Below, piece after piece: positions 5,482 to 46,072 of a stretch of DNA of 59,840 nt (position 1 is the stretch's first letter; each line of letters starts with the position of its first letter). The notes under the pieces are model-generated. The model had not been told where the DNA came from, searched no databases, and worked only from the letters and a program-made list of their open reading frames with translations. The DNA lies in IMG/VR virus record IMGVR_UViG_3300012041_000024, positions 1 through 59,840 of that record. One strand, given 5' to 3'. This DNA comes from a virus. Its lineage: Duplodnaviria; Caudoviricetes. The position numbers and the translations under genes are program-made.

Positions 5482-5532
5482 CGTTTGTACTCGTGTATTA
5501 TCGGCGCTCCGCTACAGATAGGACACCAACAA

Positions 5533-19892: not shown

Positions 19893-20422
19893 TGGCGTCT
19901 GAAGAATGCGTACAACGAGCCGTCGAACTGATGTTGGCGTCGGCGCGTGAGCGGTACCGATCGGCGAAAGAGGACGCGGTTCGTATCGCTGCGTTCCGAT
20001 TCGCGTTGCAGAAGTTCATCGACGCGTCGGTGTCGGCTGCTGCCGCGGAGTGGATCACGACGATGGACGTGATGCCGTCGGTGCATGAGTTCGTCGAACT
20101 GGCTCGCAAGCACGCGAATCTGATCGCTGACAGCCGCGCGATTTCTCCGGCGTCGGAAGCATCGCAGACGTACCCGATCGGGAAACCCGGCCGTGAAGGG
20201 TTGGCGGCGCAGATCGTGATGCTCCGCATGATGCGCGCCGTCGCGGAGCAGTGCCCGCAAGGATTCTGGGGACGCTTGGTGTACGGCAACGACTGGCGTC
20301 ACGCGACGCTGCAACCCGAAGCCGGACGCGAAGAACGGATACGGGCGTACACGACGATCGCGTACGAGCAAGCCGTCGACTTCGAAGACTCGACGCTCAC
20401 ATGGGATCGGTGGCCGTACTGA
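19892..20422 (+). CDS. putative helicase loader/inhibitor
   Basis: Directly after initiator (TAATG overlap); W....PSVHEF pattern. Confidence 0.45.
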   Translation: MASEECVQRAVELMLASARERYRSAKEDAVRIAAFRFALQKFIDASVSAAAAEWITTMDVMPSVHEFVELARKHANLIADSRAISPASEASQTYPIGKPGREGLAAQIVMLRMMRAVAEQCPQGFWGRLVYGNDWRHATLQPEAGREERIRAYTTIAYEQAVDFEDSTLTWDRWPY

Positions 20423-20580
20423 TGACTGACGACGATCTACGTGATCTTGTCGCCGACGCGCTCGCCGAGGTCTACTCCGGCGCAGGCGCAGTCGAAGCCG
20501 ACGCCTTGATTGATCACCTCGCCGACCGCGGTCTGATGGTCGTGCTCGACATCGACGACACACGCACACTCGAAACGTGA
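20422..20580 (+). CDS. hypothetical protein
   Basis: TGATG overlap, 52 aa. Confidence 0.55.
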   Translation: MTDDDLRDLVADALAEVYSGAGAVEADALIDHLADRGLMVVLDIDDTRTLET

Positions 20581-20593
20581 TAGACGTGTATCA
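20578..20593. promoter_or_regulatory. operator TGATAG-ACGT-GTATCA
   Basis: 1 mismatch to TGATAC-N4-GTATCA; at a gene boundary. Confidence 0.6.
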
Positions 20594-20615
20594 ACTCAAC
20601 AGAGAAAGCAGGATC

Positions 20616-21320
20616 ATGGAACTCCCCAAGTCAGCGATAGCGCTGGATCGGCGGCTCGACAAAGCCACCGAATCCAGCACCGAGGAATTGTGTCAGCATC
20701 GCTGGCACTGGACCCTCGACGAGACGAATCCGAAACGAGTCAGCATCCGGCAGTACGCCCTCGGCGTCGGCAGAGCACGAACGACCGTAGGGCCACAGGT
20801 CAACGGCTACGCGATGTGGGTCGGGGGTGGCCGAGAGCGCTCGCTCACTGAGTGCATCGAGCGAGCGCGGCACGGCGCCGAGAAGGAAGCGGCGATCGAA
20901 GCCGTCGCGAAGGCGTCGGGGCAGTCGTACACGAACACTCGTCAGCGTCACGGCGAAACTGTCCGCACGACGCGGGCGCTCGCCGAGGAACGGGCGCAGC
21001 GGCGGGGCACCAGCGTGGCCGACGAGATCGACGACGCGGCAGATCATCTCGTGAAGTCGGCGAAAGCGATCAAGAATCAGAAAGCCGATCGCAAGTCGAA
21101 GCTGGACGCTCGGTACATCGAGATCGAAGGCCACATCGCGGCGGCACTGCGACGACTGCGCGACGCGCTCGAAGTCGCACGAGCGATCGAGTTCGACTCC
21201 GAGCAAGTCGAGATCCTGGCCGACTCGATCAGCAAACTCCGCGCGGTGATCAACCTGATCGACGTGCAAGTCACCGGAACGACCGACGTCGATTGGGACG
21301 CCGAACTCGCGAAGCTATGA
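20616..21320 (+). CDS. hypothetical helical, possibly DNA-binding protein
   Basis: RBS before ATG; HTH-like SIRQYALGVGRARTTV. Confidence 0.6.
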   Translation: MELPKSAIALDRRLDKATESSTEELCQHRWHWTLDETNPKRVSIRQYALGVGRARTTVGPQVNGYAMWVGGGRERSLTECIERARHGAEKEAAIEAVAKASGQSYTNTRQRHGETVRTTRALAEERAQRRGTSVADEIDDAADHLVKSAKAIKNQKADRKSKLDARYIEIEGHIAAALRRLRDALEVARAIEFDSEQVEILADSISKLRAVINLIDVQVTGTTDVDWDAELAKL

Positions 21321-21331
21321 AAGGAACGGGC

Positions 21332-21748
21332 ATGAACCAAGCACGAATACTCAGACGGGACGCTCTGTACGATCTGCTCGTGGCGAACCCGACGGGCATC
21401 ACCGTCGACGACATGATGGATCTGCTCGACGTCTCGTACGAGACAGCACGCAAAACGATCCGTGATCTTCGGCGCTTCCTCGGCGACGACGACGAGATCA
21501 ACGTGCCGTGTACCCCGAACGGGATGAACGAGCGGTGGCTCTACACGCTCGAAGCGACGTTGGAGAACTCGCAAGAGTGGATCTCGAACCGTCTCGGCGA
21601 CGCAGAGTCTCGGCTCGAAACGATGGCGGCGATGACAGCGTCGCTCGTGCGAAGCACGGACGGGCGCAGCATCGAAGGCAAGAAAGCTCGGATCTTGGAC
21701 CGCGCGTTTCGTCGAGCGGCCGAAGACCTCGCGGATTTGAACGCGTGA
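21332..21748 (+). CDS. winged-HTH protein
   Basis: GITVDDMMDLLDVSYETARKTIRDLR; AAGGAA RBS. Confidence 0.65.
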   Translation: MNQARILRRDALYDLLVANPTGITVDDMMDLLDVSYETARKTIRDLRRFLGDDDEINVPCTPNGMNERWLYTLEATLENSQEWISNRLGDAESRLETMAAMTASLVRSTDGRSIEGKKARILDRAFRRAAEDLADLNA

Positions 21749-22320
21749 TGCGCCGTCTCACGTTCGTCGTGTTGGCGCTCGTCGTGGTGATCTTCGGATT
21801 CACTACGGCGAGCGCTGACGCGCCATCAACATCACAGAAACGTGTCGGGTTCCCGCCACCGAAGAACCCACACAACACCACCACGACCACGACTACGATC
21901 ACACGCCCTGTACCGCCGCCTACGAGCACGACGACGACGAGTACTACTACGACGACGCTGCCACCGCCGACGACGACACGCTTCACAGTGACGCTCGCAG
22001 ACACACCGATGGCGCCGTTCCATCTGCGCTACGGGATGCGACCGGATCACAACGTCGAACTGCGCTGGGAGTACACCGGCAAGACGTACCCGATGGAGAT
22101 CGGTTTGTTGACGTGTTTCTACGCGAACGGCGTCCCGTTGTGCGGCGACCCGTTGACGTATCAGCGCGACGTCAATGACTGGTACGTGATCATGTTGCCG
22201 CAGTTCTTCGGCGGGTCGATTCCGTACTGCGTGATCGTCGGCGTGCGCGTACTGTTCGACGACGGTCAAGTCTCCCCGCTGAACCAGGCGGGGCCGGTAT
22301 GTCAAGGGGCGTGGCGCTGA
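21748..22320 (+). CDS. secreted Thr/Pro-rich protein
   Basis: Signal peptide ending ASA; poly-Thr linker; Cys-containing beta domain. Confidence 0.7.
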   Translation: MRRLTFVVLALVVVIFGFTTASADAPSTSQKRVGFPPPKNPHNTTTTTTTITRPVPPPTSTTTTSTTTTTLPPPTTTRFTVTLADTPMAPFHLRYGMRPDHNVELRWEYTGKTYPMEIGLLTCFYANGVPLCGDPLTYQRDVNDWYVIMLPQFFGGSIPYCVIVGVRVLFDDGQVSPLNQAGPVCQGAWR

Positions 22321-22739
22321 TGGGCAAATGGGACGAAGCGAAACGCAAAGCGCTCGGCATGAACGAACCGGCAGAGCAACCACCAAGTCTGTTCGACGAG
22401 CCGATCTCGATACCGGAGCACAACGCGCGTACGTCTGATCCTGAGACGTCGAAGCGCGCCGCGCGTAACGTCGTGCCTCGTGCGTCGAACCAGCACGGAA
22501 AACTGCTGTACGTGTACGACGCGGCGTACCCGGCCGGGTTGATCGACGAAGAGGCGGGGACACGGAGCGGTCTGTCGGCGAATCGGCGGTGCTGCTACTG
22601 GAAGCGCTGCAACGAACTCCGCACCGCGGGGTACATCGAACGCACCGGCGGGATACGCCGCGGCTCAGCGGATGATCAGACCGTGTCTCGGATCACTGAG
22701 AAGGGCCGCGACCACGCCCGTCACATGCGAGAACTGTGA
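22320..22739 (+). CDS. HTH DNA-binding protein
   Basis: ARTSDPETS..AA and KRCNELRTAGYI motifs common in actinophages. Confidence 0.7.
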   Translation: MGKWDEAKRKALGMNEPAEQPPSLFDEPISIPEHNARTSDPETSKRAARNVVPRASNQHGKLLYVYDAAYPAGLIDEEAGTRSGLSANRRCCYWKRCNELRTAGYIERTGGIRRGSADDQTVSRITEKGRDHARHMREL

Positions 22740-22924
22740 TGGCTGACATGGACAGCGAATCGGCGCACATGATCATCGAGTCATTGCGATACACGAAGCA
22801 GACGTTCCAGACGTACGAGTACTACGCGTCGGAAGATCAACGTCGCGAACGGCTCGCCGATGTGGATCGGACTATCGCAGTCGTGCGCGCGTTGCGCGCC
22901 GAAGCGAAGGCGAGAGGCAAATAA
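22736..22924 (+). CDS. hypothetical protein
   Basis: Overlapping operon arrangement. Confidence 0.55.
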   Translation: MMADMDSESAHMIIESLRYTKQTFQTYEYYASEDQRRERLADVDRTIAVVRALRAEAKARGK

Positions 22925-22925
22925 G

Positions 22926-23141
22926 ATGGCGCTGATACGGATCGCGAAGAATGATTGGGCGCTCGTCGACGGCGACGGGTTGACGGTACGAATGAGCGAC
23001 TTGAAAGACGCCGAAGCCATCGCGACGATCATCGGTGACGCCGGGGAACGCGTGAACGATGCCGGGTGGATCGACATCGCGCAAGCGATCTTCGAAGCGA
23101 TCGACGAGTACCGCGTCGAACTCGAACGGCTCCCGAAGTGA
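22926..23141 (+). CDS. hypothetical protein
   Basis: Fills operon gap; coding-like codon usage. Confidence 0.55.
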   Translation: MALIRIAKNDWALVDGDGLTVRMSDLKDAEAIATIIGDAGERVNDAGWIDIAQAIFEAIDEYRVELERLPK

Positions 23142-23530
23142 AGCGATCCGGTATTAAGCGCAGCAGTAAGCCGATGAAGCGCACGCAGATGAAGCGAGGG
23201 TCGAAGCAGTTCACACACGGGAAGCCGATCGACTCGAAACGCAAACCGCTCCCGCACAAGTCGGTGAAGACGGCGCGCCGCGACGAAGAGCTACAGCGCA
23301 TGACGGCGTTGATGATGCTTGACGACCCGACGTGCCACGTCCGCTCACCGCACTGCACCGGGTACATGAGTTGCTTGCACCACGTAACTGCTCGCAGCGT
23401 CGCACCACAGCGTGTCCTCGACCCTGACAACGTCGTCCGCTCGTGTAGCTCATGCAATAACTGGATCGAGACAGCCGACGGCTCAGAGTGGGCCGAAGCG
23501 TGCGGCATGAAACGACGGAGCGAGCGGTGA
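23138..23530 (+). CDS. HNH endonuclease
   Basis: Basic N-terminus; C..C..HH..N...CSSCNNW. Confidence 0.75.
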   Translation: MKRSGIKRSSKPMKRTQMKRGSKQFTHGKPIDSKRKPLPHKSVKTARRDEELQRMTALMMLDDPTCHVRSPHCTGYMSCLHHVTARSVAPQRVLDPDNVVRSCSSCNNWIETADGSEWAEACGMKRRSER

Positions 23531-23736
23531 CGTGGAAGCCGAACGATGCGCGCCGGTACACCGACGACGCGGCGACGTGGGAGAAACGGAAACGATGGGC
23601 TGACATCGCGAACGAAGCGCTGGGCAAGTCCGGAGACGAGGGCTACGCGATCCGCGCGGCGAACGAAGCAGTCGAGCGGCGCACACGGTTCGAGCGGTGG
23701 CGCACACGGTTCGCTCAGTGGGTGATGCCGTCATGA
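23527..23736 (+). CDS. small ChaB/YdaT-like helical protein
   Basis: W...WADIANEAL..GDEGYAIRAAN. Confidence 0.5.
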   Translation: MTWKPNDARRYTDDAATWEKRKRWADIANEALGKSGDEGYAIRAANEAVERRTRFERWRTRFAQWVMPS

Positions 23737-23852
23737 GCGGCCGGGATTGGGATGACACGCTCATGCAGATCACGTACTGGACGGCGATCACCGTCGCGGT
23801 CGTCGTCATGGTCATCATCGTCGTCGTGATGCTGATGCGCTGGTTCCCATGA
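23733..23852 (+). CDS. 39-aa membrane peptide
   Basis: ATGA overlaps at both ends; one TM helix. Confidence 0.55.
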   Translation: MSGRDWDDTLMQITYWTAITVAVVVMVIIVVVMLMRWFP

Positions 23853-24262
23853 CCCGCGAGTTGAAGTTCTTCGTCGAGGGCTCCCCGGTGGCGCAAGGCA
23901 GCAAGCGCGCGATGACGAACCGCAAGACGGGTCAGCCGTACATGATCGAGGACAACGCGGGCCCGCTACGGAAGTGGCGACGCGCGATCCGCGACGAGGC
24001 ACGAGCGCATCGAGAGTCGTGGACGAAGCAAGCGCCGCTGCACTGCGGGCTGCGTTTCGTGCTCGAACCGAAGTTCTCGACGCACGTCGTCGGCGAGTGG
24101 GCTGTCACCGGGTTCGATGTCGACAAACTGACGAGGGCGGTGTTCGATGGGCTCACCGATGGGGGAGCGATCATCGACGACGCGCAGATCGTGAAGCTGA
24201 CGACGTCGAAGGTCTGGGGTCGCCCGTCGGGCGTGTCCGTCATCCTGCGAGACGTGGTGTAG
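23849..24262 (+). CDS. rusA: RusA-like Holliday junction resolvase
   Basis: PVAQGSK, DVDKLTRAVFDGL, DDAQIV. Confidence 0.92.
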   Translation: MTRELKFFVEGSPVAQGSKRAMTNRKTGQPYMIEDNAGPLRKWRRAIRDEARAHRESWTKQAPLHCGLRFVLEPKFSTHVVGEWAVTGFDVDKLTRAVFDGLTDGGAIIDDAQIVKLTTSKVWGRPSGVSVILRDVV

Positions 24263-24307
24263 CCGTGTATCTTGTAGTCACGTATCGACGCATCGGAAGA
24301 GGCATAA

Positions 24308-24664
24308 ATGGGACTGGTTCACAAGGGCCGCGAGGTCACCGGCTACGGGATCAAAGTGACGAACGCAGGCGACGGGCTCAGCAAGTCGATGAAGATCACG
24401 CCGCGCGAGTTGCAGATGGGCGACCGCGGCATGATCGTGATCGAGTACGTCGTCGCGAACGCCGGTGATTACGAACCGGCGATCAAAGCCGACTACTTCG
24501 GCCCGCTGAAAGAGATCATGAAGTTGAAGGCCGAAGCGGCGTTCTTCCTCGACGACAAGCGTGTCGCCGCTCAGATGGACAAACACAAGGCGGCGTTGGC
24601 GAAAGAACGTGAGATCGAGGGTCAGCAGTCACTCGAAGACGACATGGACAAGGACGAAGAATAA
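24308..24664 (+). CDS. hypothetical phage protein
   Basis: GAGG RBS; coding-like codon usage. Confidence 0.65.
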   Translation: MGLVHKGREVTGYGIKVTNAGDGLSKSMKITPRELQMGDRGMIVIEYVVANAGDYEPAIKADYFGPLKEIMKLKAEAAFFLDDKRVAAQMDKHKAALAKEREIEGQQSLEDDMDKDEE

Positions 24665-24922
24665 ATGGGCAGCAGTGCAGTAACCGAACGGGTGAAGATG
24701 ACCGACGCGCAGCGCGCCGCGCTGATGAAACGCCTCGTGCGTGTGCGTACGAAAGTCGACGGTCATCTGACCGCGGCGGAGACGTTGAAAGCGCAGCGCT
24801 TCGCGCTCGCTGAGCAAGCGAAAGCGGCGGGCGTGACGAACAAGGACATCGCCGACGCGCTCGGCATGACAATCCCCGGCGTCGTCAAGCTGATCGAACG
24901 CGGACGCGCGAACGGTGAGTAA
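24665..24922 (+). CDS. HTH DNA-binding protein
   Basis: GVTNKDIADALGMTIPGVVKLI. Confidence 0.75.
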   Translation: MGSSAVTERVKMTDAQRAALMKRLVRVRTKVDGHLTAAETLKAQRFALAEQAKAAGVTNKDIADALGMTIPGVVKLIERGRANGE

Positions 24923-25661
24923 ACCGAAAGCGATCTCGGAACAACTCGACGTGGCCGTGACGAAGATCGCGTCGTTGACGCCGCACCCGCGGAACTACCG
25001 CGGCCACCCCGACGATCAGATCGAGCATCTGATGCGCTCGATCCAGGACTACGGGTTCTACCGCAACGTCGTCGCGTGCACAGACGGGACGATCCTCGCG
25101 GGGCACGGCATCGTCATCGCCGCCGAACGACTCGGCATGACCGAAGTCCCGGTCGTGTTCTTGATGCTCGACCCGAACGAGCCGCGCGCCCTGAAAGTGC
25201 TCGCGCTCGACAACTACGCGTCGCACCTCGCCGAAGACGACGACCGGATGCTGACGGATATGTTGCGGGAGATTCAGCAGGCCGACGATCTGATGGGGAC
25301 AGGCTTCGACGAGATCTCATTGGCGGCGTTGATGATGATCACGCGCACCGCGGCAGAGGTACGAGACTTCGACGCCGCCGCGGAATGGGTCGGTCTACCG
25401 GAGTACGTCGACCGGAACACCCGTAACTGGCGGGCGATCATCGAGTTCGACGACGAAGCGCAACGCGAACGGTTCCTCGAACTCGTCGATCTCGTCGTCG
25501 TGCAAGGCACGAGCGACGGCATGACGCGCTCGTATCGTTGGGACGAAATCCCCGGCAGCGCGCGACGAACGCCTATCTCGACGCTACGTTTCGGAGTGGA
25601 AGATGACGACAGTGACGACGCCGCGGTATCCGATCTACATACCGTCGAAGGGTCGGGCTGA
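24915..25661 (+). CDS. ParB/Srx-like N-terminal domain protein
   Basis: LTPHPRNYR.H..QI..SI..YGF..ILAGHG..A..LG..VPV..DN. Confidence 0.88.
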   Translation: MSKPKAISEQLDVAVTKIASLTPHPRNYRGHPDDQIEHLMRSIQDYGFYRNVVACTDGTILAGHGIVIAAERLGMTEVPVVFLMLDPNEPRALKVLALDNYASHLAEDDDRMLTDMLREIQQADDLMGTGFDEISLAALMMITRTAAEVRDFDAAAEWVGLPEYVDRNTRNWRAIIEFDDEAQRERFLELVDLVVVQGTSDGMTRSYRWDEIPGSARRTPISTLRFGVEDDDSDDAAVSDLHTVEGSG

Positions 25662-26514
25662 CGCCTGCTTGACGGCGAACATCTTCGTCCGCGACGAAGT
25701 CGACTTCCGTCTCGTCGTCGAAGAACAAGAACACGACGACTACGCAGCGCGCTACGGCGACGAGCGCGTGCTCGTGCTGCCGTTCGCGAATCTCGGGCAA
25801 GGCTCGATACCGGCGCGTAACTGGATCAAGGAACACTCGATCGAGCACGGCGCGAAACGTCACTGGCAGTTCGACGACAACATCAGAGGCTTCGCCCGCA
25901 CGTTCCGCGGTCGTCGCGTCCCGATCCATTCCGGTCTGTCGACGAGCATCATCGAAGACTTCACTGATCGGTACACGAACATCGCGATCAGCGGGTTCAA
26001 CTATCGCTGCTTCGTGATGAACCGACGAGTGATCTCACTGAACTGTCACGTCTACTCGGCGACGCTCGTGCTCAACGAGATCCCGTACAAGTGGCGCGGC
26101 CGCTACAACGAAGACACCGACTTGTGTCTGCAAGCACTCGCCGGTGGCTGGTGCACGGTGCTCGTCTCGGCGTTCACTGTCGACAAGATCCCGACGATGA
26201 TGATGAAAGGCGGCAACACCGCCGAGTTGTACGTCGGCGACGGCCGCTTGAAGATGGCGAGAGCGCTCGAACGTATGTGGCCGGGAGTCGTCGAAGTGAA
26301 ACGACGCTTCGATCGACCGCAGCACGTCATCGTCGCGAACTGGCGCAAGTTCGACACGCCGCTACAGCGCCGCACTGACATCGAGTGGCCGACCGGGATC
26401 GACGAGTACGGCATGACGCTGCATCAGACAGCAGTATCAGAGCACCCACGGATCAAAGAAATCCTGTCGGCTCATAATGCGTTGGTCAGCGATAACCGTC
26501 CCGCCTCGGGATAA
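25603..26514 (+). CDS. TET-associated glycosyltransferase (TAGT/GREB1-like), putative DNA base modifier
   Basis: YPIYIPSKGR, ARNWI, WQFDDNI, YNEDTDL, MKGGNT motifs. Confidence 0.8.
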   Translation: MTTVTTPRYPIYIPSKGRADACLTANIFVRDEVDFRLVVEEQEHDDYAARYGDERVLVLPFANLGQGSIPARNWIKEHSIEHGAKRHWQFDDNIRGFARTFRGRRVPIHSGLSTSIIEDFTDRYTNIAISGFNYRCFVMNRRVISLNCHVYSATLVLNEIPYKWRGRYNEDTDLCLQALAGGWCTVLVSAFTVDKIPTMMMKGGNTAELYVGDGRLKMARALERMWPGVVEVKRRFDRPQHVIVANWRKFDTPLQRRTDIEWPTGIDEYGMTLHQTAVSEHPRIKEILSAHNALVSDNRPASG

Positions 26515-26548
26515 TCCGAAAGATTTCCCGAGAAATCTACGGTTTGAG

Positions 26549-26578
26549 TTGATACCCGTGTATCAGTGTGGCTACATT
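26549..26578 (+). promoter_or_regulatory. sigma-A-like promoter overlapped by perfect operator TGATAC-CCGT-GTATCA (26550-26565)
   Basis: TTGATA-18 nt-TACATT. Confidence 0.7.
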
Positions 26579-26584
26579 GAGCCT

Positions 26585-27000
26585 TGTTGGAAGTGCTCCC
26601 CCGGCCACAGAGGCTTGTGCAGGGACTTTCTCACCGGGCGACCCTGGCCCGTCAACGTGATTGGGATGCGTAGCCACAAGGGCTTCGATAAGTCAAAGCT
26701 TGCAGCGATAAGCGCTGGCGACGACACCGAACGGGTGCGTCAACGAACAACGAACGACAAGATCGAAGCAGTGAAGCTGCCGAACAACCTCAGCCGACAC
26801 CTTGCGTGTGACGGGGAGCGGGGAATCACGGTGTAGTAACTGCAACGAAGCGTGAGCGGAACGAGCCGCGACGCTGCTGCAACGCAGCGCACGCACGAAG
26901 CGAGCAGTAAGAGCCGCTGAGGCAGATCCCCCGATCGGCGGGGGCGAGGGACGGATGAGCCCGGGAGAAGAAACCTCAAGTAACACTGCTGCTCGCTCGA
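26585..27000 (+). ncRNA. candidate large structured RNA / leader of unknown class
   Basis: Many helices, including long-range GCTCCCC(26595)/GGGGAGC(26813) and AGCGAGCAG/CTGCTCGCT; A-rich loops; no credible CDS. Confidence 0.6.
26851..26898 (+). repeat. structured RNA motif copy 1 (GTGAGCG..2 hairpins..CACGCACGA)
   Basis: CGTGA-GCGG/CCGC-CGCTGC/GCAGCG-CACGCACGA. Confidence 0.7.
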
Positions 27001-27025
27001 CTCGAATCAACAACGGAGGGAACAC

Positions 27026-27196
27026 ATGAACCGAGACACCCAAGCCGCATTCGATGCCGCCAAGGCGCTACTCGCCCGCAAGGATGCCCGTAAGACGAGG
27101 GCACAAGAACGAGCACAGATGATCGCTGCATCGAAGGCGAAGAACGAAGCGGCGAAGGCCGCTCGGATCGCCGATAAGCATGGCGTCGTCGGATGA
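27026..27196 (+). CDS. small basic Ala/Lys-rich protein (56 aa)
   Basis: GGAGG RBS; MNRDTQAAFDAAKALL... Confidence 0.7.
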   Translation: MNRDTQAAFDAAKALLARKDARKTRAQERAQMIAASKAKNEAAKAARIADKHGVVG

Positions 27197-27342
27197 GGCC
27201 GGTGACGCGAGAGCAGTACGAGCGCTGCTCGCAGATGCTCGAAGACTCGAAAGCTGGCGACGTCAGCTACTCACCGGAAACGCTCGACATTCTTCGAGCG
27301 AACGTCCGACTCTACGAACAGCAGCATCGATACTCAGCGTGA
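27193..27342 (+). CDS. hypothetical protein (49 aa)
   Basis: ATGA overlap; MRPVTREQYERC... Confidence 0.55.
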   Translation: MRPVTREQYERCSQMLEDSKAGDVSYSPETLDILRANVRLYEQQHRYSA

Positions 27343-27386
27343 GCGGTAACAGCCGCGGCAGTGGTGCGAACCCACTGCACGCACGA
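27338..27386 (+). repeat. structured RNA motif copy 2
   Basis: CGTGA-GCGG/CCGC-GCAGTGG[TGCGAAC]CCACTGC-ACGCACGA. Confidence 0.7.
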
Positions 27387-27432
27387 CGCACGTCAACTGT
27401 GCGATCACCCAAACAACTCATCGGAGGAAACA

Positions 27433-28215
27433 GTGAGCAACACAGAGCAAGAACAACGAGCAGCCGCCCGCACGGAGCGGATCAACACCGTCAACGCCGA
27501 ATGGCGTGCGCTGCAAGCGTGGCGCAAGGGCGGCGAGGTCGGCGAACGGCCCGAAACCCCGAACGTCGACATGATCCAAGACGAAGCGTTCAAGCCGATC
27601 CGGCTGAGCGTCGACCGCCCCGCCAAGGGGACACGGACGCCGAAAGCGTCTGAGCCGCTGATCTTCACGATCAACGGCAAGCCGGTGCGCTCGAACGTCA
27701 ACTCGTTCGGCGAACTGTCGTGGTCGGGCACGAAGAACCTCGTCGGCGACGCGGTGCGGGTCAAGCCCGCCGAGTTGGTGGCGATCCTGCAAGAGCAGCA
27801 CGACATCGAGAACCCGCGCTTCACTGCATGGGGTCCGGTGACGCTGAGCAACGGCGTGACACTGCAGGTCTGCAAAGTCGACGAGAACGGCGAGCCGGTC
27901 GGACTCGTCGCGACGACTGCTCAGCGCATCGCGAAAGCCGAAGTCGAGATCGAAGCGAACCTCGCAGCGATCGACAAAGTCGTCGCCGAGCGCACGCCGG
28001 TGGTTCTGCCGGTGCTCGAAGAACTGATGGCGCCGATCGTCGGAACGCCGAAGCGTCAGCGTGCGTCACGCTCGAAGGAAGCGGTCGCCGAGCGCGCCGC
28101 GGCGAAAGCAGCGAAGGCCGAAGCGAAAGCAGCGGCGCCGAAGTTGCAGCCCCGCAAGGCGAACAAGCCAGTCGTCGGGATCAAGCCCCCGACCAGCCGC
28201 CGCAAGGCAAGCTGA
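27433..28215 (+). CDS. hypothetical protein with Lys/Ala-rich histone-like tail
   Basis: GGAGG RBS then GTG; basic C-terminus. Confidence 0.7.
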   Translation: MSNTEQEQRAAARTERINTVNAEWRALQAWRKGGEVGERPETPNVDMIQDEAFKPIRLSVDRPAKGTRTPKASEPLIFTINGKPVRSNVNSFGELSWSGTKNLVGDAVRVKPAELVAILQEQHDIENPRFTAWGPVTLSNGVTLQVCKVDENGEPVGLVATTAQRIAKAEVEIEANLAAIDKVVAERTPVVLPVLEELMAPIVGTPKRQRASRSKEAVAERAAAKAAKAEAKAAAPKLQPRKANKPVVGIKPPTSRRKAS

Positions 28216-28379
28216 TGAACACGATCAAGATTTACGTCGACGATCAACTGATCCTCGAACTCAACGATCCGATGGTTCCGTCGAGTCGTCGAGTGCAGTG
28301 TCACAACCGACTCCCGCAAGCGTTCGAGCGTGAGCGATTGGCCGAGCGCTATTACGAGCTAGAGAACGGAGGTTTGTGA
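28215..28379 (+). CDS. hypothetical protein (54 aa)
   Basis: TGATG overlap. Confidence 0.55.
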   Translation: MNTIKIYVDDQLILELNDPMVPSSRRVQCHNRLPQAFERERLAERYYELENGGL

Positions 28380-28429
28380 GCGTGTCAGGTTCAAGCCTGC
28401 GCCCCGGTGCGAAGCCGGGGCACGCACGA
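28375..28429 (+). repeat. structured RNA motif copy 3
   Basis: TGTGA-GCG..CAGG[TTCAAG]CCTG-CGC-CCCGG[TGCGAAG]CCGGG-GCACGCACGA. Confidence 0.7.
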
Positions 28430-28475
28430 CCCGCTGTCACACTGACAGCGGACAATCAACAACGGAGGAATCATC

Positions 28476-29573
28476 ATGGGTCATCTATTCGACAGCGGGT
28501 TCAGCGTCCGAGAGCCGATGTGGCACGGACTCGGGAACGTCATCGACGCCTACCCCGAGAATTGGGACGCGGCCCGCAAGTTCGCCGGTATCGAGTGGGA
28601 ACCGAAAGTCGTGCCTGCGTACATCAAGCTCGACGCCCCTCGCTTCGAGGCGGTCACGCAGTGCGGAGCGTGCAACGCTCACGCCGGTTCGATCGATCAA
28701 GCGACGAACGAGTTCGAGTGCGTCGCCTGCGGGCATCGCACGCCGCCCGCGCTCACTGAGTTCGTGCGAGTCGAGAACACGAACATCGTCACTCGCGACG
28801 ACACGAACTACCCGTTCGGTCCGGTCACCGACACGTTCGCCCCGGTGCTCAACGCCCAACTCGGCGAGATCATCGAAGCGGTGCTCGGCGAGACGAACGT
28901 CAAGTTGGAGACGCTGATCTCGTTGAAGCACGGCGCGCTGATCTCTGCGCTCGTGTATCTCGACGAGCCGTACAGCGTCGCCGGTGATGACACGCAGACG
29001 TACCCGTTCTTCTCACTGTCGAACGCGCATGACGGCAGCGCAGCGCTTCGTGCGCTGTTCACCGCGATCCGCATCGTCTGCTGGAACACGTACAGCGGTG
29101 CGCTCGCCTCCGCGGAGCGCGATCATTCGCTCTACACGTTCCGCCACGTCGGCAACGTCGCCGAACGCATCGAGGAAGCGAAGAACGTCCTGTCGAACTT
29201 GCGGGCCGACAACGCCGAGTGGCGCGAACTCGCCGACGACCTGTTCAAGCTGCCCGCTCGGGCCGCCGAAGTGAAGACGTTCACCGAACTGTTCTTGGCT
29301 GCTCCCCCAGCCGGAACGTACAGCGATCGAGTCGCGGCGAACATCGACCGTGACCGTGCGATCTTCACGAAGCTGTACGAAGAGTCGTACACGACAGAGT
29401 CGCACCGCGGCACCGCGCTCGGCTTGGTCGACGCCGCAGTCGAATACCTCGACCATGTCCGCGGCTTCCGCAACGCCGACACGAAGTTCGGCCGCTCGCT
29501 GCTGCGTCAAGAGCCGCTGAAAGCGAAAGCCGTGTCGCTCGTGCGTGAGATCTGCACGATCGGAGCGAACTGA
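28476..29573 (+). CDS. DUF932 (TIGR03299-like) protein with zinc-ribbon insertion
   Basis: REPMWHGLG, NAHDGS, RIVCWNT, FRH, AVEYLDH motifs. Confidence 0.85.
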   Translation: MGHLFDSGFSVREPMWHGLGNVIDAYPENWDAARKFAGIEWEPKVVPAYIKLDAPRFEAVTQCGACNAHAGSIDQATNEFECVACGHRTPPALTEFVRVENTNIVTRDDTNYPFGPVTDTFAPVLNAQLGEIIEAVLGETNVKLETLISLKHGALISALVYLDEPYSVAGDDTQTYPFFSLSNAHDGSAALRALFTAIRIVCWNTYSGALASAERDHSLYTFRHVGNVAERIEEAKNVLSNLRADNAEWRELADDLFKLPARAAEVKTFTELFLAAPPAGTYSDRVAANIDRDRAIFTKLYEESYTTESHRGTALGLVDAAVEYLDHVRGFRNADTKFGRSLLRQEPLKAKAVSLVREICTIGAN

Positions 29574-29588
29574 CAGCACACGCACATT

Positions 29589-29632
29589 CAAGGCCCGTAC
29601 CGATCCGTCGGTGCGGGCCTTGTTGCGTTTTC
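29589..29632 (+). terminator. intrinsic terminator
   Basis: CAAGGCCCGTACCGA/TCGGTGCGGGCCTTG stem plus T-rich tail. Confidence 0.8.
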
Positions 29633-29648
29633 CATCAAGCACGCTCGG

Positions 29649-29665
29649 TGATACGCGTGTATAAT
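29649..29665 (+). promoter_or_regulatory. promoter (-10 TATAAT) overlapped by operator TGATAC-GCGT-GTATAA
   Basis: Consensus TATAAT at 29660-29665; 1 mismatch to the operator. Confidence 0.7.
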
Positions 29666-29714
29666 GTCAGTGGTGTTCGGCAAACTGTCGGCACGAACGA
29701 GGAAGGAAACACGC

Positions 29715-30041
29715 ATGGAAATACACACGACAACCGACCCGGCGATCTACCGGAGGGCGCTCGAAGTGCTCGCGCACAACCGATACGTCGTCGTCGAACG
29801 CGACGGCAACATCGTCGACACAAGCGTTCTGCAAGACGGCGACACGCTGCTCGCCGAAGTCGTGCCTGAGGGCGTCGGCTCATGCGACGTGTGCGGGTTC
29901 AGCGTCGAGCACGACGTACACGACGGACAGATCTTCGAGGCCGCCGATGATGACAGCGAATACTTCGAATACCTCGACAAGAAACAAGCGAAGCACGACG
30001 AGTGGCTGATCTCAGCCGAAGCACCGGAATGGGGGTTCTGA
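29715..30041 (+). CDS. acidic hypothetical protein
   Basis: GAGGAAGG RBS; CDVC motif. Confidence 0.65.
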   Translation: MEIHTTTDPAIYRRALEVLAHNRYVVVERDGNIVDTSVLQDGDTLLAEVVPEGVGSCDVCGFSVEHDVHDGQIFEAADDDSEYFEYLDKKQAKHDEWLISAEAPEWGF

Positions 30042-30997
30042 TGAGCGTCAACAACAACAGCAAGATCATCCGTGAACTCGTCGCGGAGATCCGCGACACG
30101 CCGGGGTTCATGTGCTCGCAAGAGGGCGCGCACATGAAAGTCCACGGACCGGACGGGCGCACGACGACGATCAAAGTCGGCCTCGGTTCCCGCAAAGGCA
30201 AAGACGACTACGACATCAGGCGCCAGCTACGCAACTTCGTCGGCTGGCCGCCGACGACGGTCGGGCGTGCGCTGCACAAGGCGACGGCGTCAGATCCGGC
30301 GCCGGATCTCGTGCTCCCCGGCCTGACGCTCGTACCGAAGACTGCGCCACCGACGAAAGCGAAGGCAAAGCCCATGACAGCGTTTGAGAAGCCGCCTACG
30401 CCGCTGCCAGCACCGGCCGCGGTGAATACGAGTCGGCAGCGAGCCGCCTACCCTGCGCCCGTCTCATGGACGCAGGCGGTGTATCTGCACTTGCAGCGCT
30501 TCGCCGGAGCCGAACTCGACTTCGAGCAGATCATCCAGGCGGTGCCGCCGCGCGATCACGGCATGGCGACATCGTCGGCGTCGCCGATCTTGTCGTCTCG
30601 CTGGCTCGACGCCCAAGAGGGCGACGTGTACTTGTGCGTCGCTCGTCGCCGCGTCGCTCGCGGCTTCGTGTACTGGTTCACCGAAAGCCCGCGTCGGCCG
30701 GAGCGGCGTGATGACTCGAAGCGCGGCGAAGAACCGAAGCCGGTGATCCCTGAGCCGAAGCCGGAGCCGCCGCTCGTGATCCCCGAGCGTGAGCCCGATC
30801 GGCCGGTCGTGCCTGAGCCGGAAGACCCGCCGAATCTGTTCGAGCGCATCGGCGAGATCCGCTCCGGTGAGCTACTGCTCAGCGACGAGCACGGCGATAT
30901 CTGGACCGCTCAACGGGCGCGGTTCGTGAGAGTTATGGAACAAGATCTGATCCGCGACGATCGCGGCGGACTATGGCGCAAGCCGGAAAGCGAGTGA
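30041..30997 (+). CDS. multidomain protein: HicA-like N-terminus, wHTH-like middle, Pro-rich linker
   Basis: GAHMKVHGPDGRTTTI; PEPKPEP repeats. Confidence 0.5.
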   Translation: MSVNNNSKIIRELVAEIRDTPGFMCSQEGAHMKVHGPDGRTTTIKVGLGSRKGKDDYDIRRQLRNFVGWPPTTVGRALHKATASDPAPDLVLPGLTLVPKTAPPTKAKAKPMTAFEKPPTPLPAPAAVNTSRQRAAYPAPVSWTQAVYLHLQRFAGAELDFEQIIQAVPPRDHGMATSSASPILSSRWLDAQEGDVYLCVARRRVARGFVYWFTESPRRPERRDDSKRGEEPKPVIPEPKPEPPLVIPEREPDRPVVPEPEDPPNLFERIGEIRSGELLLSDEHGDIWTAQRARFVRVMEQDLIRDDRGGLWRKPESE

Positions 30998-31001
30998 CGC
31001 A

Positions 31002-31262
31002 GTGACCGATCTATCGAGCGACCCGACGTTTCATTGGGAGGATTTCCATAACGCAGGCGAACCCGCGTGCAGGCACGCCGAAGTGCGGGCGTTCGCAGCG
31101 GATGATCCTGAGAACTCGTGGGCGCACTGCTCGTTCTGCGAGGCGGATCTCACCGATCAGTGGTGGGCCGGTCGCGAGTCGCTGCGACACGACTACGCGT
31201 TGATGCCGAACACGTTGTCGCATGTTGTGCAGATCTTCTACCGGAAGGCGGTCGCGTCGTGA
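31002..31262 (+). CDS. hypothetical Zn-binding protein
   Basis: CRH..CSFC. Confidence 0.5.
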   Translation: MTDLSSDPTFHWEDFHNAGEPACRHAEVRAFAADDPENSWAHCSFCEADLTDQWWAGRESLRHDYALMPNTLSHVVQIFYRKAVAS

Positions 31263-31555
31263 CGCGGCTGTTGAGTTGCCCGACGTGCGGGGTGACGACG
31301 GCGACGAACGATTCGTGGTCGTCAGGGCAGTGCGATTCGTGTTTCGACGCGGAGACGCAAGCGCTCGCTCGGGCGTACATCGCGAAGCCGCACAGCCGGT
31401 GGCGTCAGGAGATGTGGGCGTACCGTGTTGCGTTCGTCATCGGCGGCGTGCTGCTGCTGTGGGTCTCGTTCACTGACAAGAGACAAGAGCGGGTACCGAC
31501 GGCGATAGATCCGTGTGCGCTCGTCGTCACGGCCGATGGGGCGCGGTGTCGATGA
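31259..31555 (+). CDS. Zn-finger membrane protein
   Basis: CPTC..CDSC plus TM helix; GTGA overlap. Confidence 0.5.
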   Translation: MTRLLSCPTCGVTTATNDSWSSGQCDSCFDAETQALARAYIAKPHSRWRQEMWAYRVAFVIGGVLLLWVSFTDKRQERVPTAIDPCALVVTADGARCR

Positions 31556-31556
31556 G

Positions 31557-31751
31557 ATGGCGTACACGGTGAAGTTCACGATCGAGAACCAGGATCGGGA
31601 CACGCATCACGTCATCACGACGCGCTGCAAGAACGGCGAAGCGGCGGGAGTGATCACGTCGTTTCATTGGTCGGAGCGACCGCCGGGGACGATCACGTAC
31701 ATGGTCCGATACCCGGACCTACAACCACAACAACAACGGAGGAAACGATGA
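31557..31751 (+). CDS. hypothetical protein
   Basis: Fills operon gap. Confidence 0.45.
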   Translation: MAYTVKFTIENQDRDTHHVITTRCKNGEAAGVITSFHWSERPPGTITYMVRYPDLQPQQQRRKR

Positions 31752-32068
31752 GCAGAAGCTATTTCATGGAGTCGTTCAGCGTGCAGAAGTTCGGGTCGCG
31801 CGTCGAGGTCAACGTCGTCTCCGATGTCGGCTCGACGATGAGAATCACCGCGCAGCAGACCGCGCAGATCCTCGCGCAGATGGCGACAGTCGACCACGAC
31901 GCTGTGGTCGTCGCCTTGTTGATTGCGTTACGCAACGAGCGCCGCGGCACTGAGCAGAGCGTAGGGGCGCTCTGGGTCGCTCTGGTGAACACGTACGACA
32001 ACTGGCGCCGCGAGCGACTGTCATACGAGACGACTCCGGCGGCGACGACGTCGCAGGCGCGAAGATGA
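31748..32068 (+). CDS. hypothetical protein
   Basis: CAACAACGGAGG RBS. Confidence 0.6.
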   Translation: MSRSYFMESFSVQKFGSRVEVNVVSDVGSTMRITAQQTAQILAQMATVDHDAVVVALLIALRNERRGTEQSVGALWVALVNTYDNWRRERLSYETTPAATTSQARR

Positions 32069-32370
32069 GCGGCGTGGCATGGGTGATGCGAGTTTTGGAG
32101 GTGAACACCGAGAACGGCGCGGCCTGGTCGGACGATCCGATGTGGATCGCCGGGTTCGACGTCGACGAGTTCGACGGCCGCGGCTCGGTGGAGTACACGT
32201 TCGACGTTCGCACGGCGTATCGCTTCGCGACGATCGACGACTTGTTCGATGCGTGGACGATGCAGTCGCAGGTCAAGCCGCGGCGTACGGACGGGCTACC
32301 GAACAAGCCGCTGACAGCGATCACGATCGCGGCGGAACAAGTCCACGACGAGAGGTATGATCAGCGGTGA
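32065..32370 (+). CDS. hypothetical phage protein
   Basis: RTDGLPNKPLTA motif; ATGA overlap. Confidence 0.65.
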   Translation: MSGVAWVMRVLEVNTENGAAWSDDPMWIAGFDVDEFDGRGSVEYTFDVRTAYRFATIDDLFDAWTMQSQVKPRRTDGLPNKPLTAITIAAEQVHDERYDQR

Positions 32371-32478
32371 CCTTCCGATGAGGTCGGGTAGAAGTTGCGA
32401 ATGAACGGGTCGACTCAGGATTCGCCTCCACGGTCGGCCCGTTCTTCGCGTTTTGCTATACGCGCTATCATCCGGTCC

Positions 32479-32727
32479 GTGTTCTGTATTTCGTGCTCGT
32501 CGCCGCTCGACGCGGGCGTGACGCGCCTCGCGGAGTCGTTGGGCGCGCAGCGGGTGATCTGCGCCGCTTGTCTGGCGTTGTACGCGGAGCGGCCGGAGTC
32601 GGTGGTGCAGATGAACGTCCGTATCCCCGTCGAGTTGGACGCCGAGCTTCGTGAAGCGGCTCGTGAGTCGCGTGTGCCGTACGCGAAGATCGTCCGTGAC
32701 CGCCTACAGCGAGTGAGCCAGGTATGA
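32479..32727 (+). CDS. Zn-finger + ribbon-helix-helix protein (leaderless GTG)
   Basis: TATCATCCGG upstream; CISC..CAAC; QMNVRIPVELDAELREAA. Confidence 0.6.
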   Translation: MFCISCSSPLDAGVTRLAESLGAQRVICAACLALYAERPESVVQMNVRIPVELDAELREAARESRVPYAKIVRDRLQRVSQV

Positions 32728-33389
32728 GCGGGCGTGGGCATTCGTCGCTGAATAAGCCCGTCGGCCGCGACGAGAACGGCGAGATCATCACGGCGCGTGA
32801 CCGGATCTTGGCGTGGGTCGCCAGCGGTATCCCGTACGACACGTCGGTGCTCAGAGCCGGGGTGGGGTTGGTGACGGTGCATAGCTGGCTGCGGGAAGCG
32901 GCCCGCGCCGAAGAGTTGACGATGACGAACCCGTCTCACAAGCTGACGCCGTATCAGCGGGATCTCATCGTGTTCTCGCATCAGTTGGAACACGCGAAAG
33001 CGGAGGGCGAAGCGAAGTTCCACGAATCGATGCAAGCCATCGCGCACGGCAACTTGTCGCAGGTCACGACCACACTCAAACTCGTCGAAGACCCGACGTC
33101 GAACGGCGACGCCCGTACTGGCACTCCGGCCGGTTGGCGCGTCGTGGAACGCACAGTGAAAACGGAGCGGACGCTGCCGCATTTCGCTGCTCTGCGGTGG
33201 GTGTTGGAGAACCGCTACGGCCGGAAACTGCCGACGGAGTTGGTGTGGCGCGACACGATCTCGGGCACCCTGTCAGACGACGAAGGCGTCGACGTCTTGA
33301 TCGCCGGTGCGGAAGCGTATTTGGAGCAGCGCGCCGCCGCGATCGAAGCGACGTCGACCGAGTCGAACGGCTCGAATGGATCTCACTGA
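32724..33389 (+). CDS. terminase small subunit (putative)
   Basis: HTH-like N-terminus; AALRWVLENRYG; immediately before TerL. Confidence 0.65.
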   Translation: MSGRGHSSLNKPVGRDENGEIITARDRILAWVASGIPYDTSVLRAGVGLVTVHSWLREAARAEELTMTNPSHKLTPYQRDLIVFSHQLEHAKAEGEAKFHESMQAIAHGNLSQVTTTLKLVEDPTSNGDARTGTPAGWRVVERTVKTERTLPHFAALRWVLENRYGRKLPTELVWRDTISGTLSDDEGVDVLIAGAEAYLEQRAAAIEATSTESNGSNGSH

Positions 33390-35043
33390 GCAAGACGCCC
33401 TCGATCGCCTCGCGGCGTGGTTCGCTACTCGTTCCGATGACGAGGTGTTGGCGTATCTGACGAACGAAGTCCCTCGACTTGGCTTCGCCGCGCGTCGCCG
33501 GATCGAGCGCACGCTCGGGCATCGCTTGGCGGTCGGCGTGCGCGCGGAGCCGTTCACGCTCGCTCGTCACGTCCATCAGGAATGTTTGGATGCAGGGGTG
33601 CCGGATTGGCCGGAATCGGTCGAAGACTGGCCGTATGTTCGCTATCTGAGCCGTGAGATCTCCGAGACGATGACGAACGGCGGGCGACTGTGCATTTCGC
33701 TCCCGGCGCAGGTCGGTAAGTCGTTCTGGACGCGGCTCGGCGTGTTGTGGCGTCTCGACGCGCGACCGGATCGACGGGTGATCTATCTCGGCTACTCCGA
33801 TTCCCCCGCCGAAGAGGCGAGCTTTTTCATGCGTGAAGTCGTACGCGCCGCGGGCCCGAAACTGTCGTTCACGTTGCGGCAGGATTCGCAGAGCAGACAC
33901 AGATGGTTGACGGATCAGGGCGGCGGCATTCTCGCGACGGGTATCGGCGGCGGCGTCGCAGGCTTCGGCGGCAGCGTTGTCGTCGACGACCCGTTGAAGA
34001 ACTGGCAAGAGGCGCACAGCCCCGCGCGCCGTGAGTACGTGTGGAACGAGTTGCGCGCGGTGATCTCGCTGCGACTCGCGGAGGACGACTTCCTCGTGGT
34101 GTGTCACACGCGGTGGCACAAGGAAGACCCGACGGGGAAACTCGAACAGTTCGTGAAAGAAACCGGCGCGCCGTGGAAGTTCATCCGTCTCCCGATGACC
34201 GCCGAAGAGCACGACCCGATCGGCCGAGCTCCCGGCGAGGTGTTGGCGCCGGGCCGGTACTCGAAGGCGTACGTCGAAGCCCGCAAAGAACTGCTCGGCA
34301 GCTATCTGTGGTCGGCGCTCGAACAGCAGAAACCGGCCGAAGAGGAAGGTCTGTTGGTGAAGCGGGCGTGGTGGCAGTGGACAGCGACGCCGATCTCAGA
34401 TGCCGACGAATGGCTGACGAGCACTGACACGAAGATGAAGGACCGCACCGGCGGGAGCTACGTCGTGACGCAAGCGTGGGGCCGGATCGGGAACACGTTT
34501 CACTGCGTCGATCAGATGCGCGGCCAATGGTCGCAAGCCCACGCACGAGTCGCCCTCGCCTTGATGCAGCATCGCCACCCACAGATCAATCAGCACCTTG
34601 TGGAAAACGCCGGGTACGGCCCCGAGATGATGGAAGTACTCAGGGACGGCGACCCGCAATACGTACTCAGCGACGACATGGCCGGTGAACTCGGCGTCAC
34701 CCACTACGAACGAGCAGCCGTCGAGCAGATTCTTCGCGACGGATTGCCTGGCCTGATACCTATAACGCCGAAAGCGAGCAAAGAGGTCCGAGCACGTGCG
34801 ATCACCCCGCTCATCGAAGCAGGCAACGTGTTCCTCGTCGAAGGCCAACCGTGGGCCGACCAACTCGTCGACGAGTGGGCACATTTCCCAGAGCCGCCGA
34901 ATGACATCGTCGACACCACCTCCCAAGCACTCAGCAGACTCCGCCACGGCGACACAGTGAGCGCAGCACCACCAACCGCAGAACTACCCCGCCAACGACC
35001 GATGCGAGTACCGAACGCCATCGGCTCCATCCCCCGCCACTGA
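33376..35043 (+). CDS. terminase large subunit
   Basis: Walker A ISLPAQVGKS; Walker B VVVDDPLKN; HTRWH; nuclease VENAGYG, SKEVRA, DIVDTTSQAL. Confidence 0.95.
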   Translation: MDLTEQDALDRLAAWFATRSDDEVLAYLTNEVPRLGFAARRRIERTLGHRLAVGVRAEPFTLARHVHQECLDAGVPDWPESVEDWPYVRYLSREISETMTNGGRLCISLPAQVGKSFWTRLGVLWRLDARPDRRVIYLGYSDSPAEEASFFMREVVRAAGPKLSFTLRQDSQSRHRWLTDQGGGILATGIGGGVAGFGGSVVVDDPLKNWQEAHSPARREYVWNELRAVISLRLAEDDFLVVCHTRWHKEDPTGKLEQFVKETGAPWKFIRLPMTAEEHDPIGRAPGEVLAPGRYSKAYVEARKELLGSYLWSALEQQKPAEEEGLLVKRAWWQWTATPISDADEWLTSTDTKMKDRTGGSYVVTQAWGRIGNTFHCVDQMRGQWSQAHARVALALMQHRHPQINQHLVENAGYGPEMMEVLRDGDPQYVLSDDMAGELGVTHYERAAVEQILRDGLPGLIPITPKASKEVRARAITPLIEAGNVFLVEGQPWADQLVDEWAHFPEPPNDIVDTTSQALSRLRHGDTVSAAPPTAELPRQRPMRVPNAIGSIPRH

Positions 35044-46065: not shown

Positions 46066-46072
46066 CTCGCTA

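Follow-up and report, generated by a model that had tools for sequence, protein, structure and literature searches.

Introduction

In the early transcript of phage T7, which is made by the host polymerase, similar RNase III sites lie between the cistrons, where the RNA is cut into separate messages on which protective hairpins are left. These sites are long, irregular double-stranded hairpins of about two helical turns. In prophages, multiple hammerhead ribozymes flank single genes or short gene blocks, which Perreault et al. 2011 (PMC3088659) interpret as a way to process long transcripts of the phage into gene-length mRNAs. Segmentation of phage operons into single messages by clustered small ribozymes is thus known, for few ribozyme classes only, and new classes have earlier been found near genes associated with known ribozymes (PMC6154101). 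Here, we analyze positions 26585-27000, and the operon that follows them, in the complete IMG/VR virus record IMGVR_UViG_3300012041_000024 (59,840 bp, 63% GC; the whole stretch is called the window below). Our best reading is that this region belongs to an about 440-nt 5' leader of a five-gene operon and is not one large RNA gene. A core-less three-way-junction RNA is repeated in the leader and in the later gaps of the operon, with compensatory changes in its stems, and stands where the nearest related operon has hammerheads.

Results

A Y-shaped RNA module recurs along one operon

A self-search of the window revealed that 26849-26901 recurs at 27336-27389, and reading the next gap gave a third copy at 28380. 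Each copy comprises about 45-50 nt and folds alone into the same Y, a three-way junction. In the three canonical copies, the closing helix P1 (GCGUG/CACGC, 5 bp) and the ACGA(C) tail at the 3' end are invariant. The P2 hairpin (4-5 bp) reads GCGG/CCGC in two copies and CAGG/CCUG in the third, and the P3 hairpin (6-8 bp) has a different stem in each copy, closed by a UGCGAA or UGCAAC loop. The strands that join the helices in the three-copy alignment are short: 1 nt (A/U), 2 nt (GA/GG/CG) and 0 nt.

We scored folds as z-scores of the minimum free energy against shuffled sequences, and took pair probabilities (p) from the Boltzmann ensemble of 26586-27060. All copies lie on the + strand. E1 (26849-26898; P1 26850-54/26890-94, P2 26856-59/26866-69, P3 26872-77/26884-89) forms its helices with pair probabilities of 0.94-0.99. 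E3 (27336-27385; P1 27337-41/27378-82) is followed by a third hairpin at 27387-27403 and holds the upstream stop codon (27340-42) inside P1. E4 (28380-28428; P1 28380-84/28421-25) begins directly after the stop codon at 28377-79, is followed by a 9-bp third hairpin at 28431-28451, and folds with z -4.66 (0/200 shuffles). A fourth, expanded copy, E2 (26899-26997), has 5' and 3' flanks that resemble those of the other copies, a 9-bp closing helix (26899-26907/26989-26997; p about 1.0) and extra internal hairpins (z -2.05). E1 and E2 form a tandem pair that ends the leader on its 3' side, with E1 about 260 nt from the predicted transcript start. Together they correspond to what the first-pass annotation of this DNA had called a repeated junction motif and Domain 3 (the latter being E2), and here it had picked out a real signal: 26849-26998 folds with z -2.69 (0/200 shuffles).

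The three canonical copies preserve the fold through changes on both sides of the stems. In the alignment of E1, E3 and E4, 45/45 cells are paired, and 6 of the 15 pairs change on both sides, none on one. Not one of 500 shuffles reaches these pairing and compensatory counts, and structures slid by 1-3 columns along the alignment are only 20-51% paired. U-G pairs in P2 (E3 and E4) and in P3 (E4) fit an RNA of the + strand, which also gives better fold z-scores than the - strand in three of the four copies. A covariance model, R1, built from E1, E3 and E4, finds only these three across the whole genome (76.5, 81.5 and 77.7 bits, respectively; the next best hit scores 14 bits). By the sequence and model searches described below, the module itself matches no described family.

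The copies are confined to one operon of the genome and occupy every sizeable intergenic gap of it. The order is leader, E1, E2, a block of two genes (56 and 49 amino acids), E3, a second block of two (260 and 54 amino acids), E4, the DUF932 gene and a terminator; the later gaps are 27343-27432 and 28380-28475. Between a module and the downstream start come a CA-rich linker and GGAGG. The linker AATCAACAACGGAGG occurs in two exact copies and one near copy, and the 15-nt CA-rich linker ending in GGAGG after E2 is identical to 28454-28468 after E4. In front of the first gene, linker, GGAGG and start codon span 27005-27028 (+ strand).

Hammerhead ribozymes occupy the matching positions in the nearest related operon

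The closest relative of the DUF932 protein that we found (47%, or 51% over 265 amino acids) is encoded on L033, a phage-like metagenome contig of 66% GC. Its layout matches that of our operon: spacer with element, two overlapping small genes, spacer with element, DUF932. The spacer before DUF932 contains a type II hammerhead (L033:1111-1180; Hammerhead_II, 45.1 bits against a gathering threshold of 37, E 2.6e-7) that starts one base after a stop codon. In the preceding spacer, L033:629-696 matches the same ribozyme with 25.6 bits, below gathering and with its core intact, so that hammerheads in successive spacers bracket the two small genes upstream of DUF932. In L033:629-696, the open stem and the tail read GCACGCACG, the same letters as the 3' strand of P1 and the tail of the modules.

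A 14-mer is common to E2 (26913-26926) and L033:1162-1175, where it lies inside the core strand of the hammerhead. The E2 version departs from the L033 core strand at one position and has no other core element beside it; we regard it as no more than a weak lead. We also inspected E2, E1 plus E2, and 26683-26768 as variant hammerheads and rejected all three, as no complete core could be made out by eye.

L053 is a more distant contig with a gpA-like C-terminus, a weak DUF932-like similarity and a loosely syntenic operon. Its spacers at 2225-2353, 2603-3002 and 3206-3297 fold very stably (z -6.2, -4.0 and -5.7), and the 400-nt spacer has a closing helix of about 22 bp. Each gene is followed by a hairpin that resembles a terminator, with a GCUU loop on a covarying stem, and then by GGCGUG. 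Neither Rfam nor R1 gives a match on L053. Because they fold stably and have no Rfam match, these spacers are candidate structured RNAs in their own right.

The region as a whole does not behave as one large structured RNA

The first-pass annotation had proposed a single large RNA like GOLLD or ROOL for 26585-27000, with a Domain 1 (26586-26848) preceding the junction motif. On the + strand, the whole region folds with z -0.62, and 29/100 shuffles fold as well. For Domain 1, the z-score is +0.19 (109/200 shuffles as good), that is, a folding energy equal to that of dinucleotide shuffles, which the annotation itself had named as a result that counts against the idea. For the 5' part of Domain 1 (26610-26682) it is +0.65 (138/200 as good). 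In sliding 100-nt windows, the leader is not more structured than the adjoining coding sequence, except at 26675-26774 (z -3.9). The attractive claim of a new large RNA therefore needs correcting as unsupported: the region has neither an exceptional fold nor an Rfam match, and only its 3' third is supported.

All complementary segments listed by the annotation are present in the sequence where it placed them; within Domain 1 they do not add up to more than chance. Three of its 11 helices reach p >= 0.9 (GACG-CACC/GGTG-CGTC, AGCGAGCAG/CTGCTCGCT and CCCCG/CGGGG) and CAGCG/CGCTG reaches about 0.5, whereas the remaining seven have p <= 0.3, six of them <= 0.06. The proposed closing helix of Domain 1, GCTCCCC/GGGGAGC, has p 0.00, as do four helices proposed for its 5' part (26604-26682, + strand), where a defined structure is unsupported.

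Within Domain 1, 26683-26768 (+ strand) is predicted to form a locally stable branched sub-domain with a 7-bp closing helix (p 0.87-0.96), two hairpins and a 20-nt CA-rich single strand (z -3.41, 1/200 shuffles). The full leader, 26586-27025, also folds somewhat better than shuffles (z -2.33, 0/100), much of which is due to a predicted pairing of its 5' end with the Shine-Dalgarno region of the first gene: C-rich 26593-26603 pairs with 27014-27025 with p 0.89-1.00. The Shine-Dalgarno sequence is paired with a probability of 0.999, against 0.70 +/- 0.15 in 60 shuffles, none of which reaches it. In the folding model, 26593-26603 is a possible anti-Shine-Dalgarno element for the first gene. Apart from this one sub-domain of local stability, we have no explanation for Domain 1 as a segment of the leader.

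Rfam does not contain the structure. There were no matches at gathering thresholds in the window and none at E<=10 on 26400-27500, and the search of 27300-29750 at E<=10 gave five weak, unrelated matches only. In the same scans, the covariance models of twister, twister-sister, pistol, hatchet, HDV-like, GOLLD and ROOL RNAs remained without a match.

The leader follows a promoter-like site that overlaps a recurring palindrome

Between the TET-associated glycosyltransferase gene (TAGT; 25603-26514, + strand; Pfam PF20691, E 2.7e-40) and the gene at 27026, 26515-27025 leaves 511 nt in which no credible gene is seen. A crude map of open reading frames (ORFs) shows just one longer gap, 38454-39112, which is occupied by short overlapping ORFs, so the first-pass annotation was right to call this the largest gene-free stretch. 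ORF 26477-26836 matches only itself among 5.8 billion proteins, and no other ORF in 26515-27025 has a ribosome-binding site. An AU-rich hairpin lies directly 3' of the glycosyltransferase stop codon (26512-26545; 7-bp stem, -9.3 kcal/mol); it is weak (z -1.56), and from its predicted fold it is a possible weak terminator setting the upstream genes apart from the leader.

The promoter-like site that the annotation had placed just before the region, TTGATA-18-TACATT, is present at 26549-26578 (+ strand) and was recovered by pattern scan as a sigma-70-like candidate, the sole one in 24000-30000 (1 found; shuffles mean 0.6). Its -35 element overlaps a 16-bp palindrome at 26550-26565, so the promoter call may partly reflect the palindrome motif. 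This palindrome (TGATAC-N4-GTATCA type) occupies seven intergenic sites (5485-5500, 7855-7870, 18017-18032, 20578-20593, 26550-26565, 29649-29664 and 40904-40919) and gives 11 strand-matches against 0.7 expected (0/100 shuffles). The palindrome may be an operator or a promoter element of the phage. Six of its sites precede a start codon by 38-75 nt; for 26550-26565 the distance is 476 nt, which marks the leader as unusually long. The annotation had further put the region at the head of an early transcript. This is not established. The operon follows recombination, replication and DNA-modification genes and precedes the terminase.

Small genes of the operon and the search for relatives

The first gene of the operon (27026-27196, + strand) encodes a small, basic, helical-looking protein of 56 amino acids. 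At its very C-terminus it carries the motif ...IADK-GV-GG, which is common to three distant, longer small metagenome proteins (E 5e-4 to 8e-4); for this reason the gene is probably real. Some relatives have Cys-rich N-termini, and the small-protein family, which has no name, occurs together with DUF932 in L053. Family searches assigned the 56-amino-acid protein to no family. The overlapping 49-amino-acid ORF (27193-27342, + strand) yielded self-matches only in the protein search. The 260-amino-acid protein has one relative (44%) in the protein collection, no match in a PDB sequence search or in the ESM Atlas, and no relative in IMG/VR contigs, whether searched as a single query or as a two-sequence alignment. 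The DUF932 gene (28476-29573, + strand; PF06067, E 4.6e-31) is the last of the operon, which is closed by a canonical intrinsic terminator (29589-29622, + strand) with a 15-bp stem and a U-rich tail.

Relatives of the phage are distant. Among 50,697 phage records, neither blastn with 26400-27300 nor megablast with 20000-34000 found a match. TAGT relatives occur at 28 IMG/VR loci, with at most 58% amino-acid identity and without synteny, and blastn and nhmmer detected no similarity to the leader DNA in these 28 loci. No relative of the DUF932 gene was found in IMG/VR contigs; a scan of metagenome contigs with the protein gave four loci, and among 401 Actinomycetota genomes three encode a relative (28-31% identity).

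Exact-pattern scans for the module returned 2, 0 and 1 matches in IMG/VR and 15 in 185,579 species genomes. We rejected these as homologues: they score 13-21 bits with R1, against 76-81 for true copies, and are hence chance matches. The same applies to L031, the first promising pattern match, which R1 places at chance level and which folds with z -0.58. R1 found nothing in two genomes and then in 151 sampled Actinomycetota genomes, a weak negative, as the host is not identified. The sequence is present in 12 public sequencing runs, all DNA, with none on record as RNA. Contigs from four runs over 25600-29700 are identical to the window wherever they cover it, so they offer no natural variants for covariation.

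Genome setting

All credible genes of the window lie on the + strand, and the nearest cultured relatives are actinobacteriophages, with amino-acid identities of at most about 34%. In the gene map, tail genes reach up to about 17 kb, followed by genes for a single-strand annealing protein (18060), a replication initiator (19149) and RusA (23849), and, between RusA and the glycosyltransferase gene, for a helix-turn-helix protein and a ParB-like protein (all + strand). The five-gene operon thus comes after recombination, replication and DNA-modification genes; beyond its terminator lie further small genes, and after them those for terminase (33376), endolysin, portal and capsid, again on the + strand. 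ARAGORN found no tRNA or tmRNA gene in the window, and the Rfam tRNA model found no match.

Several other features of the genome are worth recording. Genes for DNA and virion modification comprise those for the ParB-like protein and the TET-associated glycosyltransferase (24915-26514), immediately upstream of the leader, and two further glycosyltransferase-like genes and an FkbM-type methyltransferase gene within the structural genes (3779-7834); the searches run showed no TET/JBP enzyme. An HNH endonuclease gene (13101-13454) has been inserted behind the tape-measure gene, separating it from the tail gene that follows. The 283-nt gap 46066-46348 upstream of the major capsid gene folds with z -3.52 (0/200 shuffles) and contains a branched domain inside a 14-bp perfect helix (about 46073-46086/46146-46159).

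Discussion

The modules as punctuation of a polycistronic message

We hold with good confidence that the anatomy described here is right, that is, a long leader and repeated Y-shaped modules in one operon. As an explanation of the whole, we consider it about even odds that the modules are cis-acting mRNA punctuation elements. A transcript from the promoter-like site would run through the genes at 27026-29573 to the terminator at 29589-29622, and the modules would bracket its three blocks: the 56- and 49-amino-acid genes, the 260- and 54-amino-acid genes, and DUF932. At the modules the mRNA would be cut, or its segments insulated, such that each gene block would become a separate message, stable and translated to a degree of its own. 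We give slightly under an even chance to processing or segmentation of the mRNA as the function. The hammerheads at the matching positions of L033 point to processing rather than to modification of the polymerase. If cleavage occurs, the cutting agent is somewhat likelier to be an RNase of the cell or the phage than the modules themselves, because none of the known catalytic cores would fit into the module junction. The modules are unlikely to be an undescribed self-cleaving RNA, or a hammerhead-derived, core-less scaffold that cleaves otherwise or with a helper. Among the functions offered by the first-pass annotation, "ribozyme" came closest in spirit, given the hammerheads of L033; the modules themselves have no hammerhead core.

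Several observations weigh against reading the modules as processing signals. The structural evidence comes from three paralogues (four with E2) of one genome, so that the covariation counts are small and the lineages not independent, and neither the pattern scans nor R1, applied to the sampled genomes and L053, found a module homologue outside this virus. Taken singly, E1-E3 have modest z-scores (-1.6 to -2.1), and the strand preference is weak, with E2 folding better on the - strand. The modules have no hammerhead core and match no Rfam ribozyme model at E<=10, which makes the positional equivalence with L033 an analogy drawn from one contig; the 9-13 nt of flank in common with L033 could be due to chance or to the GC-rich context. 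Rfam searches of nine further DUF932 loci (one of them partial, and including those of phages Kozie and Hendrix) found no ribozyme and only one tRNA, so the association of DUF932 with hammerheads likewise comes down to one contig. Lastly, the invariant P1 and conserved P3 loop would equally suit a protein-binding site.

The main rival to processing is that a trans-acting factor binds the modules and that no cleavage takes place there. They could then serve as nut- or put-like elements for read-through of 29589-29622 into the packaging genes, or as operators of a translational repressor, with the basic 56-amino-acid product of the first gene as candidate partner. Invariance of P1, the 3' tail and the P3 loop (UGCGAA/UGCAAC) beside varying stems is typical of hairpins recognized by proteins. 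The protein encoded by the gene after the tandem modules is small, basic and helical-looking, and its C-terminal motif is conserved; the operon also ends in a strong terminator, immediately ahead of the next set of genes. The put RNAs of HK022 are comparable in that they form two stem-loops downstream of early promoters (PMC9378689). By contrast, one antitermination element would suffice, and here three to four stand in series at block boundaries. The window searches found no known antiterminator protein family, and no boxA-like element was found, although no boxA model search was made. Together with the self-cleaving RNAs that L033 has at these positions, this makes a factor-binding role improbable in our estimate. 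We regard it as decidedly improbable that all of 26585-27000 is one multi-domain non-coding RNA, be it decoy, sponge, antiterminator or ribozyme, of the GOLLD or ROOL kind. Such an RNA would account for the biggest gene-free stretch sitting behind a promoter-like site, for the better-than-shuffled folds of the full leader (z -2.33, 0/100) and of 26683-26768 (z -3.41), and for the 400-nt intercistronic spacer (z -3.96) in the loosely syntenic operon of the distant L053. It is hard to square with the shuffle-like energies of the region (z -0.62) and of Domain 1 (z +0.19), with seven of 11 helices at p <= 0.3 and a Domain 1 closing helix at p 0.00, and with sliding-window z-scores no stronger than in the neighboring coding sequence. 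Moreover, the part that is supported consists of small modules that are found singly between other genes too, there is no Rfam match, and no homologue was found from which covariation in Domain 1 could be read.

Two further explanations do without a functional RNA module, and both are made less likely by the finding that every stem difference is compensatory. The modules might have arisen by recent duplication, or be decayed remnants of, say, earlier hammerheads, in either case without function and with the leader as spacer DNA, which we think very unlikely. Their helix order and flank are those of a type II hammerhead without the core, and they occur in one genome only, where identical sequences in four metagenome runs give no sign of ongoing selection. 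Decay predicts one-sided stem mutations, however, and 0/45 cells are unpaired; P1, loop and tail are identical in three copies, and a tightly packed phage genome rarely retains about 0.7 kb of useless spacer. The repeats might instead act at the DNA level, as duplex or single-stranded hairpins that mark recombination boundaries or serve as priming or packaging signals, with the RNA fold incidental. Recombination in mosaic phage genomes is frequent at gene-block boundaries, repeats that form hairpins can act on single-stranded DNA, and the - strand folds are nearly as stable. Yet the stems change in sequence and stay paired, unlike duplex DNA-binding sites. All copies share the orientation of transcription, their U-G pairs become C-A mismatches on the opposite strand, and the L033 counterpart is an RNA enzyme; we thus judge a DNA-level role the least credible of these readings.

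If the modules are sites of processing, then either they are a self-cleaving motif of a new kind, or a structure recognized by a nuclease has taken the place of a ribozyme; both outcomes would be informative on the means and the reasons by which phages divide up their transcripts. Were they self-cleaving, they would do the job of the L033 hammerheads, and this operon family would be a place where small ribozyme classes replace one another. The covariance model R1 provides a means to look for further copies.

Comparison with known systems

The gene-free region resembles GOLLD, ROOL and similar RNAs (Rfam 15) in being a long non-coding stretch of a phage genome. It differs in that no model matches, the region folds like its shuffles, and the structured part is modular and repeated. 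With the T7 RNase III sites the modules have in common that they are repeated, mutually similar and intercistronic, standing in the leader and two gaps of one operon; they are Y-shaped, with helices of 4-8 bp, and not two-turn hairpins. Sites of the lambda nut type combine a boxB hairpin, which has a GNRA-like loop, with boxA and an N-like protein, and in our reading the P3 loops UGCGAA and UGCAAC could form GNRA-like loops.

The HK022 put RNAs are about 70 nt long and consist of two long stem-loops, in two similar copies downstream of early promoters, and act in cis (PMC9378689). Like them, the modules are short two-hairpin elements in similar copies downstream of a promoter. The put elements have long stems in a V shape, no closing helix and one occurrence per operon, close behind the promoter, whereas the modules measure about 45-50 nt, have a closing helix and occur in 3-4 copies per operon at block boundaries. 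The nearest actinophage analogue is the SAS/ESAS system (start-associated sequences and extended SAS) of Cluster K mycobacteriophages. PMC3203893 and PMC12699233 describe it as asymmetric repeats directly upstream of starts that include the ribosome-binding site, often after an inverted repeat, and give their function as unknown. The 13-nt consensus GGGATAGGAGCCC and the 17-bp conserved inverted repeats, as given in PMC3203893, are absent here. The ESAS arms are conserved in sequence and 10-20 copies occur genome-wide, whereas the stems of our modules covary and 3-4 copies lie in one operon.

The closest comparison is with type II hammerheads (RF02276). The modules have neither the core, with junctions of 1, 2 and 0 nt in place of the CGAAAC, GUC site and CUGAUGA of the model, nor a match to the hammerhead models at gathering (37 bits) in the window or at E<=10 on 26400-27500 and 27300-29750; L033, the positive control, scores 45.1 bits. 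The invariant P1 and P3 loop are not a hammerhead feature. In architecture, P1, P2 and P3 correspond to the open stem II, the stem III hairpin and the stem I hairpin. Like clustered type II hammerheads, the modules are small three-helix-junction RNAs repeated in the gaps that bracket gene blocks, and they share GCACGCACG with the one at L033:629-696; like the hammerheads of L033, they stand by a stop codon, upstream of a Shine-Dalgarno sequence and start, at the same positions of the operon.

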